DNA of 47,165 bases from an uncultured Bacilli bacterium (GTDB taxonomy: Bacteria; Bacillota_I; Bacilli_A; RF39; UBA660): NCBI GenBank assembly GCA_944359015.1, contig CALVSK010000003.1, positions 1-47,165 of the forward strand, given 5' to 3'. The stretch's first letter is position 1, and the number at the start of each line of letters is the position of its first letter. Below are positions 5,499 to 47,165 of the stretch, one piece after another. Made by a program: the position numbers and the translations under genes. A model generated the notes under the pieces. The model saw only the letters and a list, made by a program, of their open reading frames with translations, made no database searches and was not told the DNA's origin.

Positions 5499-6410
5499 TT
5501 ATATTTCAATAGTTTGATATAAATTGCCATTTATTAATATTTCAATACCCAAATCCGTAACATTAAAAGTTAAATTATCAAATGTTGCCAACTCAACGGT
5601 TTTAAGAACATTTTCAGAACAGTTTTCAAAAATATATAAATTACTTTGATTAACAACAAAAACATAATTTCCAACACAATATACATATTCTTTAGTTAAT
5701 GAACCTAAATATTCTTGTCCATTATAATCCATTATATGATATGCTGTATCATAAGTTATATAATAATTATCATTAAAATCTACAATTTCATTACTACTTA
5801 CTACAGAACGTGTATTAGTTTTATCTAAAATCAGCCACTCATTATCTTTTTTTGCTATCATTTTAGAAGTATTTAAAATAGAATTATTTAAATGTGCAGG
5901 AATTCCAATAAAATCATATTCTATAGGTATTTTTAATTCAACAGTTAATTCATTTACAGATAAAAGTCCCCATTTTTCATTATTTTCTACAATTAAAACT
6001 TGTTCACTATGATTAATATTATAATTTTTTACTGATGTATAACTACTTAAAAAATTACTAGTCATCATACTATAAATATTATTTAAATTATCTTTTTTAA
6101 TTATACCAAAGTTACTATTTAAAGTTGGCTCTAAAACTAAATCTCCATATTGATAATAATTAATATGATAATTTTCATCATCGATTGTAGTAGATACAAT
6201 TTCACAATCTGGGCAATCAAATACTGACAATAACTCATCATTTAAATAAAAGTATACTTTATCATTAAATAATATTTCATGATTAGGATTATCATCAATT
6301 AATTCTTTTTCATTACCTTCAGTTATTTTCTTATACGTTCCCAAGATGGAGCAAGGAAGAAAAATAGCAAGCAGAACAATAATTGTTATTAAAGTTTTTT
6401 TATCTTGCAT
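5499..6410 (-). CDS. Membrane-anchored hypothetical protein (beta-rich, WG-repeat-like)
   Basis: N-terminal hydrophobic anchor; KWGLL...IPIEYDFI WG-like repeat; GGAGG RBS. Confidence 0.7.
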   Translation of the reverse strand: MQDKKTLITIIVLLAIFLPCSILGTYKKITEGNEKELIDDNPNHEILFNDKVYFYLNDELLSVFDCPDCEIVSTTIDDENYHINYYQYGDLVLEPTLNSNFGIIKKDNLNNIYSMMTSNFLSSYTSVKNYNINHSEQVLIVENNEKWGLLSVNELTVELKIPIEYDFIGIPAHLNNSILNTSKMIAKKDNEWLILDKTNTRSVVSSNEIVDFNDNYYITYDTAYHIMDYNGQEYLGSLTKEYVYCVGNYVFVVNQSNLYIFENCSENVLKTVELATFDNLTFNVTDLGIEILINGNLYQTIEI

Positions 6411-13944: not shown

Positions 13945-16056
13945 TTATTTATATTTAATAGCAAATTCCTCATTATTATTTATATCAACTATCAAAGTTG
14001 AACCAACCTTTATATCATTTGCAATAATTTCATGTGAAATTAAAGTTTCAATATTTTTAGTAATATATCTTCTTATTGGTCTAGCTCCATATCTTTCATC
14101 ATAAGCTTCATTTATAATCTTTTCTTTTGCTTCCTTAGTTACTTCAATATGTAAATAATTTTGACTAAGTCTTTCATTTAATTCTTTAACTATTTTATCT
14201 ACTATATCTCCAACAACATTTTTCTTTAAAGAATTAAACACTATAATTTCATCAATACGATTAATAAATTCAGGTCTAAAAGTATTTTTAAGTTCATTTA
14301 ATACAAGTTCATTTGCATTATCTTTATTATCTAAAATATACTCACTACCTAAATTACTAGTCATAATAATTATTGTATTTTTAAAATCCACTGTTCTTCC
14401 TTGAGAATCTGTTAACCTTCCATCATCAAGTATTTGAAGTAAAATATTAAAGACATCTTTATGAGCTTTTTCTATTTCATCAAATAAAACAATACTATAT
14501 GGATTTCTTCTTACTGCCTCAGTTAATTCTCCACCTTCATCATAACCAACATATCCTGGAGGAGCTCCGATTAAACGAGATACATTAAAACTTTCCATAT
14601 ATTCAGAACAATCAATTCTAACCATATGTTTTTCATCATCAAATAATTCATAAGCTAAAGATTTAGCTACCTCAGTTTTACCTACACCAGTAGGTCCTAA
14701 AAAAATAAATGAACCAATTGGTTTAGTTGGATCTTTAATTCCACTTCTTGCTCTAATAATAGCTTCACTGACAAGTTTTAAAGCATTATCTTGCCCCATA
14801 ACTCTTTCCTTTAATCTATCAAATAAATGAAGTAATTTATCTTTTTCACTACTTACTAATTTAGCAACTGGAATATGAGTCCAACGAGAAATTATTTCTG
14901 CAATACCTTCTTCTGAAACTATATCAGATAATATACTATTTTTATTATTATCTTGTAAATCCTTTAATTCATGTTCTAGTGCAGGTATAGTTCCATGACG
15001 TAATTTAGCACTAAGTTCTAAGTCGTAATTGGCCTCAGCATTACTTAAATCAAATTTAGCTTTTTCAATTTCTTCTTTTTTCTTATTTATAGCATCCTTT
15101 ACTTCTTTTTCACTATTCCATTTATCTCTTAAAACGTTTTCTTTATCCTTTAATTCTTTTAATTCTTCATCTATTTTTATTAATCTATTTTTAGATATTT
15201 CATCTTTTTCTTTTTTTAATGCTTGACGTTCTATTTCTAAACTCATTATTTTTCTAGTCAAAGTATCAAGTTCTACTGGAACTGAATCAAGCTGCATCTT
15301 TATAGTAGCACATGCTTCATCCACTAAATCTATTGCTTTATCAGGTAAATATCTATCAGTAATATATCTATCAGACAAAGTAGCAGCAGCAACCAAAGCA
15401 CTATCTTTAATTGTTACACCGTGAAAAATTTCAAATCTTTCTTTTAAACCACGAAGTATTGTAATTGTATCTTCTACATTTGGCTCACTTACTAAAACTT
15501 TTTGAAACCTTCTTTCCAAAGCCCCGTCTTTTTCAATATATTTACGATACTCATTTAAAGTTGTAGCACCAATAACATGAATTTCACCTCGAGCAAGCAT
15601 CGGTTTTAACATATTAGATACATCCATAGCATTAGATTCACCAGCACCAACAATCATGTGAATTTCATCAATAAACATAATAATGTTTCCATCACTATCT
15701 TTTATTTCTTTTAAAACTGCTTTTAATCTTTCTTCAAATTCACCACGATATTTAGCACCAGCAACTAAGGCTCCTAAATCAAGTTCCCAAATAGTATGAT
15801 TTTTTAAACTATTAGGAACATCTCCTTTAATTATTCTTTGGGCAAGACCTTCAACTATTGCTGTTTTACCAACACCAGCCTCACCTATTAAAACTGGATT
15901 ATTCTTACTTTTACGAGATAATATTCTAATAACATTTCTAATTTCTTCATCACGCCCAATTACAGGGTCAACTTTATTATCAGCAACATTTTTAGTTATA
16001 TCTCTTCCATATTTATTTAAAACATCTTTTAATTCTTCTTCATTACCTGGATACAT
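13945..16056 (-). CDS. clpB: ClpB disaggregase lacking the N-terminal Clp-repeat domain (703 aa)
   Basis: [19 protein letters not shown], long coiled-coil M domain, [22 protein letters not shown]; ATG 16056 after AGGAGG. Confidence 0.93.
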
Positions 16057-24712: not shown

Positions 24713-24789
24713 TGGTGTCCTCGAAGTGATTCGAACACTCGACCTAATGCGTCGGAGGCATTCGCTCTATCCAACTGAGCTACGAGGAC
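24713..24789 (-). tRNA. tRNA-Arg(CCG), CCA encoded
   Basis: Acceptor GTCCTCG/CGAGGAC, D-loop with A20, anticodon arm AATGC-CTCCGAC-GCATT, TTCGAAT T-loop, ACCA end. Confidence 0.96.
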
Positions 24790-44897: not shown

Positions 44898-45686
44898 CTA
44901 TTCAAAATTTATATTTACTGCCCCAATACCAATTTCAAAATCTATTAGATTTTGACCATTACCATACTTGCCACTTGAAATTTTTTCGTTATCTATTTTT
45001 AGTTCACCAATGCCTTTATCAATTGTAAATTGATAATCATCTTTGTTACCCATCAACGTCAAATTTGTTTTGCCTATACCAGTATCAATTTTTGATTTTC
45101 CAGTTATTTGAGCTCTTATATTGACTTCACCAATTCCAGTATCTAAATCCAAATTATTTAAAACTGTATTATTTATCTCAATTTCTCCAGTACCTCCATC
45201 AATTTCACTTTCTTTAAATTCTGAATTATTAATATTAACTAACCCTATTCCTAAGTCTAATTCTAACTTATTAGCTTTTATGTCCTTTATAGTATTATTA
45301 CCTGTATTAGCGTCAATTTTTAACTCATTTATTTCTTGAGGAATATAAACTATTACTTTACTATCATTATTTTTTACATAGTTATTTAAAAACCAACCAT
45401 TTTTTTCTTTAATATATAAGGTATTATTTTTTTCCACTACTTCAAAACTTTTAGTAACATTATGTGCTTCAACCTTAAATTGAACACCACTAACTATTTC
45501 TAAATTAGTTACATTCAAATCTATTTCTACATTATTTATGTTATTAAAACTCTTAACATAATCTTGTAAATTATTAGATGTACTAAATAAACCTACTAAT
45601 GATAGTAAAGCATTTATTATTATACCTATTATTAATGCCGCTAGACAGATGGCTATAACTTTTATTACTTTTTGTCCAGATGTCAT
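44898..45686 (-). CDS. DUF4097-like beta-strand repeat membrane protein
   Basis: N-terminal TM; repeated (D/E)xG(I/T)GxVxI units. Confidence 0.8.
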   Translation of the reverse strand: MTSGQKVIKVIAICLAALIIGIIINALLSLVGLFSTSNNLQDYVKSFNNINNVEIDLNVTNLEIVSGVQFKVEAHNVTKSFEVVEKNNTLYIKEKNGWFLNNYVKNNDSKVIVYIPQEINELKIDANTGNNTIKDIKANKLELDLGIGLVNINNSEFKESEIDGGTGEIEINNTVLNNLDLDTGIGEVNIRAQITGKSKIDTGIGKTNLTLMGNKDDYQFTIDKGIGELKIDNEKISSGKYGNGQNLIDFEIGIGAVNINFE

Positions 45687-46363
45687 TTAATTTCAATGCC
45701 TCCAAACAAAGCTAAAGCATCAATATAAATAGTTTTCTTACCATCTTTAGTTTTACTCTTATTGGTAACACCACCAAAAATTGGAGTAGATTTTACTTTT
45801 ACTATAACATTTTTAGGAACAATTATATCAACACTACCAAATATAGCACTAGCATTTATATACGTTTCTTCTTTTAATGTAGCATTTGTTAAATCAAGCA
45901 CTACTCCCCCAAATATGGCTTCTACTTTAGCATTAGAAACCTTATCATTTTCCTTATTTACATATTGTTCTGCAAAAGTTGCACATATTACTTCACAATC
46001 TTTCTTTCCAACTTTTTCTTTTATTTTTTCATACTTTTTATTAGCAAATACATTTCCAATTATTAAATATATTCCAATAAATACAAATACTCCTGGAACG
46101 AATAATTTGAATATAGTAGTTATATCAATAATGTTTTGACAAATTAATAATAATAACAACCCTATTATCATCCCAAATATATTCTCAATTTTACTTTTAT
46201 TAGTTTCATCAAATAAACCAATAAAACATGGAATAATTATTAAAAGTGTCCACCAACCATTAAAGAAGATATTAAAATTTATAATATCTAAAGTATTTAA
46301 AGCTACTATTACTCCTAAAGTTATAAATACTATTCCCCATAATATACGATTTATTTTTTCCAT
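45683..46363 (-). CDS. LiaF-like membrane protein
   Basis: WG..FI.LG...GWWTL.IIIP TMs; AIFGG..LDL, AIFG.VDI.VP, LFGGIEIK. Confidence 0.8.
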   Translation of the reverse strand: MEKINRILWGIVFITLGVIVALNTLDIINFNIFFNGWWTLLIIIPCFIGLFDETNKSKIENIFGMIIGLLLLLICQNIIDITTIFKLFVPGVFVFIGIYLIIGNVFANKKYEKIKEKVGKKDCEVICATFAEQYVNKENDKVSNAKVEAIFGGVVLDLTNATLKEETYINASAIFGSVDIIVPKNVIVKVKSTPIFGGVTNKSKTKDGKKTIYIDALALFGGIEIK

Positions 46364-46421
46364 AATCACTTTCCTTACTATTTATTTTTGTTAATATAAT
46401 TTTATGTTGATAACTCGCGGA

Positions 46422-46448
46422 CCCTCGCCGTTTTAGATGCGGCGAGGG
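46422..46448. repeat. GC-rich inverted repeat (CCCTCGCCG-N9-CGGCGAGGG); candidate DGR target-recognition hairpin
   Basis: Perfect 9-bp stem 15 nt past the stop at 46464; no U-tract on the gene (minus) strand. Confidence 0.7.
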
Positions 46449-46463
46449 CTTTTGTTTCTCCTT

Positions 46464-47165
46464 CTAACTTATTCTATACGGATTACTCTCTATTCCATCT
46501 CCACTAACATATGTGACATTAGAGTTTAGATAAAAGACTGGCCTGGCCGAATAGCCATTGCTCGCGTAGTCGTTGTTCAAGGTGCCGTCATAGTTCAGAA
46601 GAAACACGAAAGTACTGTACGACGAAATCGGAGAAATAGTCCATTCATGAGAACCTAAATATAACCAATTTGTACTTCTTAAGGTTGAATTACTATAACT
46701 ATATAATGCTGTTGTCCAATAGTCTGGACTTACTGCAAATCCATAATCACTTACATACATTAATCCTATTTTCATAATGTCTGTTGTACTACTTGATGAA
46801 CTTCCTACTTCTGTATCATAGTATTGTTTTGCTGTATTCGTTGTACTCCAAGCCATTCCTCCAACTTTCCAGGTATGTGTTGCTATTTTGTTTTGCCATG
46901 TAGCACTTAATGTATTGTAATATGTGGTATTTAATGTTGTTTTTATATCTGATGTACTCCATGAATTATCATTTCCACTATCCCACTCATAACTTCCATA
47001 AATTGTTGATTTAATTAGTTTTATCTCATTGTCAAATACTCCAATTATTCTATATAAATTATCTTCTGGACATGTTGCTGCATCGCTTCCAAAGCATACA
47101 TAGTTATTTGGATTTGCTCCAGCATATCTATAACTATTATCTGCTGCACTATTAGCTAGATTTGT
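46464..47165 (-). CDS. 5'-truncated surface protein with C-terminal CLec-like (DUF6273-like) domain; probable DGR target
   Basis: Frame is open to the window edge (TNLANS...YRYAGANPNNYVCF...YRIIG...IKLIK...W); KIGLMYVSDY..A; EWTISP...RPVFYL...G.G...PY.I. Confidence 0.85.
   Translation of the reverse strand, partial: TNLANSAADNSYRYAGANPNNYVCFGSDAATCPEDNLYRIIGVFDNEIKLIKSTIYGSYEWDSGNDNSWSTSDIKTTLNTTYYNTLSATWQNKIATHTWKVGGMAWSTTNTAKQYYDTEVGSSSSSTTDIMKIGLMYVSDYGFAVSPDYWTTALYSYSNSTLRSTNWLYLGSHEWTISPISSYSTFVFLLNYDGTLNNDYASNGYSARPVFYLNSNVTYVSGDGIESNPYRIS
46535..46643 (-). other. Putative DGR variable region (VR)
   Basis: 48/95 GC over 46536-46630 in an AT-rich gene; 34 consecutive codons (TGG to AGG) with no third-position A; many AAC/TAC/GAC/GGC/AGC/ACC/TTC codons. 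Confidence 0.7.

Follow-up and report, generated by a model that had tools for sequence, protein, structure and literature searches.

The hallmark of the reverse transcriptase (RT) of a diversity-generating retroelement (DGR) is the combination of (I/V/L)GxxxSQ in domain 4 with YxDD in domain 5 (PMC3521204), and the described systems closest to the one considered here are the DGR of Bordetella phage BPP-1, the DGR of Treponema denticola and the DGRs of gut phages that diversify DUF6273, a C-lectin-like target domain with the variable region (VR) at its C-terminus (PMC10743442; PMC11792537). The target genes of phage DGRs have a hairpin or cruciform at a distance of 4-34 bp from the VR, with a stem of 7-10 bp and a GRNA loop of 4 nt (PMC3240598). 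A 2017 survey of 372 DGRs gives maxima of seven non-adjacent or eight tandem targets, although its supplementary tables may list larger sets (PMC5758913), and surveys of metagenome contigs state that DGRs with remote targets escape them (PMC8144416). Here, we describe a gene at the end of contig CALVSK010000003.1 of an uncultured Bacilli bacterium of the RF39 lineage (assembly GCA_944359015.1; 976 kb in 56 contigs, 25.4% GC, estimated completeness 90%). The window, that is the whole stretch of 47,165 nt analysed, is the whole of this contig (C3). In our view, it is very likely that the gene is the 3' half of a chromosomal surface-protein gene and a remote target of a DGR cassette on contig C15, being one of eight genes that this cassette serves.

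When the genome was searched with the variable segment of the window gene, near-copies were found on six other contigs, and a search for the RT family returned two RTs, on contigs C5 and C15. The RT on C15 bears IGNMTSQ and YMDD. Its best sequence match in the PDB (8ub7_A, E=1.7e-14) is known by its label 'Reverse transcriptase' alone, and a literature search for 8UB7 found no paper. Shortly after the stop codon of this RT lies the template repeat (TR), which in the frame of the target genes reads S N S S N S N N V F N L N N N G N L N N N N A N N G Y S A R. It holds 15 AAY codons (AAC or AAT), and its adenines are distributed over codon positions 1, 2 and 3 as 17, 16 and 1. Since the adenines of AAY stand at codon positions 1 and 2, each rewriting would randomise at least 15 of the 30 residues of a presumed ligand-binding patch without creating stops; the computed diversity is about 3.5e19 protein variants, with no stops in the AAY codons. 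Within the genus, the RT was detected in 31 of 36 further genomes; beyond it, in 2 of 24. Of the 11 loci examined in relatives, 9 have an AAC-rich TR directly past the stop of the RT.

An ungapped alignment to the TR was obtained for eight VRs, of which C15 and C2 carry two each, and C3 (the window), C8, C11 and C27 a single one. Over these eight, 122 of 152 mismatches fall on TR adenines (p=3e-26), which occupy 34 of the 89 TR positions; in the window VR alone the count is 14 of 16 (binomial p=7e-5). Viewed by position, 33 of the 34 adenines vary in at least one VR, as against 14 of the 55 other bases (Fisher p=3.7e-12). All eight target open reading frames (ORFs) are open, and each VR lies 25 or 26 codons ahead of the stop. 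The preliminary description of this DNA, made from the letters of the window, had proposed a non-phage chromosomal target served by an RT and TR elsewhere in the genome; the C15 cassette with its eight targets is such an arrangement, with a near-copy whose mismatches are biased to adenines, placed near an RT and an Avd-like gene, and eight paralogues in all that share the VR ends.

On the minus strand of C15, the cassette runs from a 481-aa target through a 90-aa ORF, a 118-aa Avd-like ORF, the RT, the TR, about 250 nt of non-coding DNA and a 96-aa ORF to a 378-aa target; it also adjoins a serine-hydrolase-like ORF and helix-turn-helix (HTH) regulators. The 118-aa ORF overlaps the RT start and is matched over its full length by bAvd PF22296 (E=5e-6, 27.4 bits) and by NF033474, DGR Avd (E=3.7e-9, 36.8 bits), while a PDB sequence search with it gave no Avd match. 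Directly 3' of the TR, a segment of 126 nt (C15:17855-17980, minus strand) is better conserved than the TR itself across six species, for which a common three-hairpin fold with a few compensatory changes was obtained. The segment lies where the 'spacer' RNA of Bordetella primes the synthesis of cDNA, and it may be the corresponding priming or 'spacer' portion of the RNA of this DGR. An Rfam scan of the cassette (L011:4300-6600, E up to 1) returned no match. The two small cassette ORFs, of 96 aa (L011:4439-4729) and 90 aa (L011:6499-6770), both on the minus strand of C15, have no family match; five relatives conserve the beginning of the 96-aa ORF that follows the TR, and there may be an unrecognised DGR accessory gene here. 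The other RT of the genome, on C5 (C5:10392-11342, minus strand), is of retron type (PADLOC RT_Ec107-like, E=5.5e-124) and unrelated to the DGR.

Hypervariability at the templated positions is seen both between strains and across the family. The full-length counterpart of the window gene, protein P0129 (484 aa), is 100% identical to the window fragment across 233 aa, and differs from a strain variant of the same length, P0132, at 18 residues. Ten of these differences lie among the 30 VR residues, all at TR Asn codons, whereas the other eight are spread over the remaining 454 residues (Fisher p=5e-9). That the two proteins differ almost only at template-adenine codons is the strain-level variability expected from the outset of this segment, and we therefore consider that the window VR has been rewritten recently within the species. 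In an alignment of 44 proteins, the 15 columns that correspond to TR Asn codons have an entropy of 3.10 bits, compared with 0.69 for the remainder of the domain.

The variable segment also stands out by composition, much as first described. Third positions free of A extend over exactly 34 successive codons (residues 175-208; 46643-46542, minus strand), from TGG ACT ATT to GCC AGG, whereas 44.7% of the 199 codons outside it end in A; about 4e-7 runs of this length would be expected per gene of such size. The reported jump to about 50% GC corresponds to the 89-nt core, at 49.4% GC against 31.6% for the gene remainder and 24.9% for the window, and both bounding motifs, WTISP and RPVFYL, are present in the ORF. 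The only other 89-nt stretches of the window that reach 48% GC are a tRNA-Arg(CCG) gene (24713-24789, minus strand) and the hairpin just 3' of the target gene. The GC-rich 3' end of the VR, GGCTATTCGGCCAG, is identical in the TR and in six of the eight VRs, with a one-base difference in C8 and in one of the two C15 copies (C15a), and the TR and VR sequences part immediately after it. It thus sits at the position expected of an element like that for the initiation of mutagenic homing (IMH) and, judged by this placement, probably functions as one. DNA near-identical to the tail that follows it in the window gene also follows the VR in the paralogues C2a, C2b and C11. The coordinates of these features are collected in Table 1.

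Table 1. Features of the target gene in the window and of the DGR cassette on contig C15; positions without a contig name are those of the window.
Feature	Position	Strand	Basis or remark
DGR target gene, 3' part	46464..47165	-	233 codons and stop (stop 46464-46466)
VR core, 89 nt, fragment residues 179-208	46542..46630	-	ungapped homology to C15 TR, 83% identity
GC-rich VR 3' end, 14 nt, GGCTATTCGGCCAG on the coding strand	46543..46556	-	TR/VR alignments
Constant C-terminal tail after VR, PVFYLNSNVTYVSGDGIESNPYRIS then stop	46464..46541	-	
GC-rich inverted repeat (CCTCGCCG, 9-nt loop, CGGCGAGG), stem 9-10 bp	46421..46449		folded as DNA, -12.2 kcal/mol, z -2.79
GTTATCAACA motif after hairpin	46405..46414	-	conserved after most target-gene hairpins, in this genome and relatives
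DGR-type RT	C15:~19147-18086	-	PF00078, 70 bits
Template repeat (TR), 89 nt	C15:18069-17981	-	~13 nt past RT stop

The gene is open past the window edge, as had been noted: the minus-strand ORF reaches position 47165, where the end of the contig truncates it at the 5' side. The missing half was sought in the assembly with residues 1-255 of P0129, a search that met only paralogues at 34-41% identity, and so the 5' half of the window gene was not assembled. The neighbours of the gene in the window are a LiaF-like gene and a DUF4097 gene, which is an ordinary chromosomal context and in keeping with the chromosomal locus originally claimed. An alternative genetic code was considered and dropped in favour of code 11, as the only tRNA-Trp among the 26 tRNAs is CCA and none reads UGA; reading TGA as sense raises the totals of long ORFs only modestly.

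From the N- to the C-terminus, P0129 consists of a hydrophobic helix, a beta-sandwich domain and a DUF6273/C-type-lectin-like domain. Modelled on its own with AlphaFold 2, the 233-aa domain of the window fragment reaches a pLDDT of 92.2 and a pTM of 0.90, and its best structural match is 9qa6_A residues 37-303 (Z 17.6, root-mean-square deviation 2.7, 190 aligned residues, 20% identity; Foldseek E=7.5e-8), a region described as the N-terminal DUF6273 domain of the Thomasclavelia ramosa IgA peptidase (PMC12402451). Weaker matches include the C-terminal domain of Legionella Lcl (Z 6.7), a Bacteroides fimbrial protein (Z 6.6) and Treponema TvpA (2y3c; Z 6.2), and C-type lectin domains account for about 35 of the 50 matches listed, at Z 5-6, where a Z below 8 may mean a common arrangement only. 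The C-type-lectin-like fold that had been anticipated is thus what the model, in its resemblance to DUF6273 and C-type lectins, predicts. In the full-length model of P0129, the hydrophobic helix covers residues 6-34 and the beta-sandwich residues ~45-215 (pLDDT 80-94), while the C-terminal domain falls to a pLDDT of 30-55, as against 92.2 in the domain-only model. The middle domain has no clear relative and was left unassigned, as its best VIA matches, to CUB-like and other beta-sandwiches, reach a Z of 6.4.

The preliminary description had also raised the possibility of a pilin-tip protein, and this found no support. A prepilin leader is short and charged and ends in Gly, followed by a hydrophobic segment with Glu at +5, whereas P0129 and its paralogues start with a Lys/Arg-rich stretch that runs into a plain hydrophobic helix, with no prepilin motif on inspection; Pfam and NCBIfam scans of the target protein found no pilin family. 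A SipW/TasA-type signal was dropped as well, given that there was no Pfam or NCBIfam match to such a signal or to the TasA family; the N-termini bear (T/S)(Y/F)(A/S)F after the hydrophobic helix, and TasA is one of many beta-sandwich matches (Z 5.5). The product would be a membrane-anchored or secreted surface protein that presumably binds a ligand at the cell surface.

This genome has 15 loci of the target family, roughly half of which are hypervariable; each of the relatives gave 21-43 matches. Its 3' hairpin, which in the window starts 14 nt past the stop codon and 92 nt past the VR end, occurs in exactly eight copies in the genome, each directly 3' of the stop codon of a family gene: seven of the eight VR targets (all but C11) and a paralogue without a VR on C41. 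In three relatives, six VR-bearing targets are followed at the corresponding place by GC-rich hairpins, the stems of which come in three different sequences; this argues for a structure under selection. No T-run follows on the coding strand, so the hairpin is not a canonical terminator of the target gene. By analogy with the phage systems, it may play a role in target recognition. The 9-nt loop of the hairpin after C15a (C15:16294-16318) is the exact reverse complement of the loops after C15b (C15:19737-19761) and C2a (C2:36519-36543) with the same stems; the hairpin must therefore have flipped at one locus. Two further paralogues, at C40:~5610-5770 and C12:~15298-15457 (minus strand) and without the GC hairpin, carry GC-rich (57%), A-poor segments at the VR position that are unlike the C15 TR and match the TR of a second DGR type in the relative G020 (C3:5898-5999 of that genome), 26 of the 37 mismatches between the C40 segment and the G020 TR being at TR adenines. 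A second DGR RT or TR was sought in this assembly and not found, and for this reason we regard the C40 and C12 segments as orphan VRs of a lost or unassembled cassette.

Logan contigs of four sequencing runs (X1, X2, X5 and X7) were mapped to positions 45200-47165 of the window at a minimum likeness of 90. Long pieces cover the unique flank, which differs from the window at no position in X1 and X2, at 35 per 1014 nt in X5 and at 23 per 618 nt in X7; the organism is therefore present in these runs, which are labelled chicken gut and come from three studies. Inside the gene the Logan contigs are short: the flank contigs end at 46533 or 46541, the VR 3' end being at 46542, coverage is almost nil in the bin 46586-46651, and a few joints skip from 46536 or 46544 to 46695 or 46739. 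With eight occurrences of the VR 3' end, the tail and the hairpin in the genome, paralogues may be the source of such breaks and joints.

Several observations weigh against the reading of the window gene as a remote target of a working C15 cassette. An in-frame TAA at C15:~18600 splits the RT in this assembly, and RT halves are likewise recorded from other assemblies (P0366, 181 aa; P0365, 166 aa), with substitutions of their own. As the split halves appear in those assemblies too, the stop is probably real, and with a broken RT this strain may therefore be frozen at present. The adenine bias is also incomplete: 30 of the 152 TR/VR mismatches lie off adenines. Of this number, 26 occupy the third position of a codon, and such mismatches return at identical sites in several VRs (TR positions 5, 14, 20, 26, 29, 41, 62 and 74). 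In the window VR they are C>T at TR positions 41 and 74, the latter common to C2b, C3, C8 and C11. From this recurrence it follows that the VRs were not simply written from the present C15 TR allele; some of the recurrent bases are those found in the TRs of related species, which suggests that the last template of the VRs was another, perhaps older, allele of the TR. The family assignments are borderline in two places. Both Avd matches of the 118-aa ORF lie below their curated cut-offs (40 bits for PF22296 and 80 for NF033474), and the window fragment scores 22.4 bits (E=1.2e-4) against Pfam DUF6273 (PF19789), below the 23.5-bit cut-off, as does P0129 (18.4 bits), while the paralogue P0001 (C2a) stands above it at 23.7 bits. 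Finally, the strain-level evidence is at the protein level and comes from two sequences.

Part of this evidence would also suit a fossil DGR, the VRs of which were written in the past and whose element was killed by the RT nonsense mutation, leaving the segment to drift slowly. Such a history would explain the in-frame TAA, the same split RT in the records of other assemblies (P0365 and P0366) with its own substitutions, and the third-position, non-adenine differences of the VRs from the present TR, two of which are in the window VR. However, an intact RT of 354 aa (P0362) exists that is ~99% identical to the C15 RT and belongs to the same 90%-identity protein cluster; in P0362, and in the orthologue from the relative G019 (354 aa, 90% identical), the interrupted codon specifies Glu, as GAA in G019. 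Both halves of the C15 RT are otherwise intact and keep all motifs. The RT gene thus appears to be polymorphic, with interrupted and intact alleles, and to be interrupted in more than one strain; its close relatives come from ENA and Logan sources, the JGI records being at most 59% identical. Given that the TR keeps its 15 AAY codons and is near-identical to the TRs of relatives with intact RTs, and that P0129 and P0132 differ at ten Asn-templated residues while being ~98% identical elsewhere, which indicates recent rewriting, we think it somewhat improbable that the element is a fossil, although we take the possibility seriously.

It is much less plausible that the DGR belongs to a phage or prophage and diversifies tail or receptor-binding proteins, as do most gut Firmicutes DGRs with DUF6273 targets. 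DUF6273 targets are indeed known from phages and prophages (PMC10743442; PMC11792537). However, given that the targets lie on at least six contigs, that LiaF-like and DUF4097 genes neighbour the window copy, that the cassette adjoins a serine-hydrolase-like ORF and HTH regulators, that the target proteins begin with a hydrophobic membrane or signal helix, and that remote targets are reported, in the parts of the 372-DGR survey drawn on here, only for non-phage DGRs (PMC5758913), we consider a phage origin very unlikely, although no scan of the flanks for phage genes was made. The absence of any DGR, with a conserved module in a large paralogous family (15 loci here, 21-43 matches per relative) whose members exchange tails, a 'TR' that is a stray gene fragment, and differences due to chance or selection, is hardly credible when the TR is non-coding and lies ~13 nt past the stop of a DGR-type RT both here and at nine loci of relatives, 80% of the mismatches hit A although it makes up 38% of the positions (p=3e-26), the adenines occupy positions 1 and 2 of Asn codons and an Avd-like gene is adjacent.

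We therefore return to the reading of one cassette with eight targets, two of them adjacent and six on other contigs, the window gene included. The cassette, the adenine bias, the fold and the strain- and family-level hypervariability at Asn-coded positions are demonstrated in this work, and the retrohoming steps that would connect them are modelled on the Bordetella phage paradigm. First, the TR and the structured RNA 3' of it would be transcribed, probably together with avd and RT. A complex of RT and Avd would then copy the TR into cDNA, placing random bases opposite the template adenines. Finally, the cDNA would replace the VR of any gene that has the matching GC-rich 3' end. Beyond this, one could speculate that the activity of the system is switched, with the stop-bearing RT allele acting as a population-level off switch or a leaky-stop throttle and the hairpin with GTTATCAACA as a portable cDNA-recruiting tag for eight dispersed genes, but we rate this proposal as unlikely. 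If the hairpin were such a tag, target recognition would operate at a much greater distance, and with another loop, than in the phage paradigm; if both parts were true, this ~1-Mb gut bacterium would offer a compact natural case of regulated multi-locus surface hypervariation.

A gut member of Bacilli with a reduced genome thus invests in a 15-member family of lectin-like surface proteins, and this suggests that the ligands change, as host glycans, antibodies, phages or partner cells would. The eight sites that pair a VR with a hairpin, together with the intact and interrupted RT alleles, could serve for work on how targets are recognised and how DGR activity is controlled. For annotation, a GC-rich island without A at third codon positions that lies at the 3' end of a gene in an AT-rich genome reliably flags a DGR target, whether the cassette is remote or not. 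In a literature search on DGR, chicken and RF39, the term DGR was absent among the matches listed. The system is of a known kind, and its polymorphic RT stop, its distant hairpin and its recurrent non-adenine differences are worth following up.

Among the known systems, the one from T. denticola is similar in being cellular and non-phage, with one RT and TR for several non-adjacent surface-protein genes and a VR that ends a domain of C-type-lectin-like fold. The two differ in the target domain, which here is of the DUF6273 type rather than TvpA/FGE; in their order, which here is avd-RT-TR with the TR after the RT, with two adjacent targets and six on other contigs; and in the host, which here is a gut member of Bacilli with a ~1-Mb genome of 25% GC. 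With BPP-1 (mtd, avd, TR, brt), the locus shares an Avd-like gene, an RT with (I/V/L)GxxxSQ and YMDD, an AAC-rich TR, a VR at the 3' end of the target with a GC-rich shared 3' end and a GC-rich inverted repeat 3' of it, and a structured non-coding segment immediately past the TR. In contrast to BPP-1, the order is avd-RT-TR instead of avd-TR-brt, there are eight targets instead of one and the system is chromosomal. The hairpin also departs from that described for BPP-1 and other phages (PMC3240598), having a 9-nt instead of a 4-nt GRNA loop and lying past the stop codon, 92 nt from the VR instead of 4-34 bp.

The DUF6273 targets of gut phages, such as the tentaclins and those of a Faecalibacterium prophage, belong to the same domain family, to which the proteins described here are assigned with borderline Pfam scores and clearly by structure. 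Those targets are receptor-binding or decoration proteins in phage genomes, with the domain N-terminal in tentaclins, whereas the proteins here are cellular, begin with a membrane or signal helix, have a beta-sandwich as spacer and form a 15-member family. The closest solved structure, the IgA peptidase 9qa6, is likewise a secreted protein of a gut member of Bacillota (PMC12402451). Its DUF6273 is fused to an M64 peptidase, unlike that of the window protein, and the accessible part of its description reports no DGR or VR (PMC12402451). With eight targets on at least six contigs served by one cassette, the system equals the largest counts given in the main findings of the 372-DGR survey available to us (PMC5758913).

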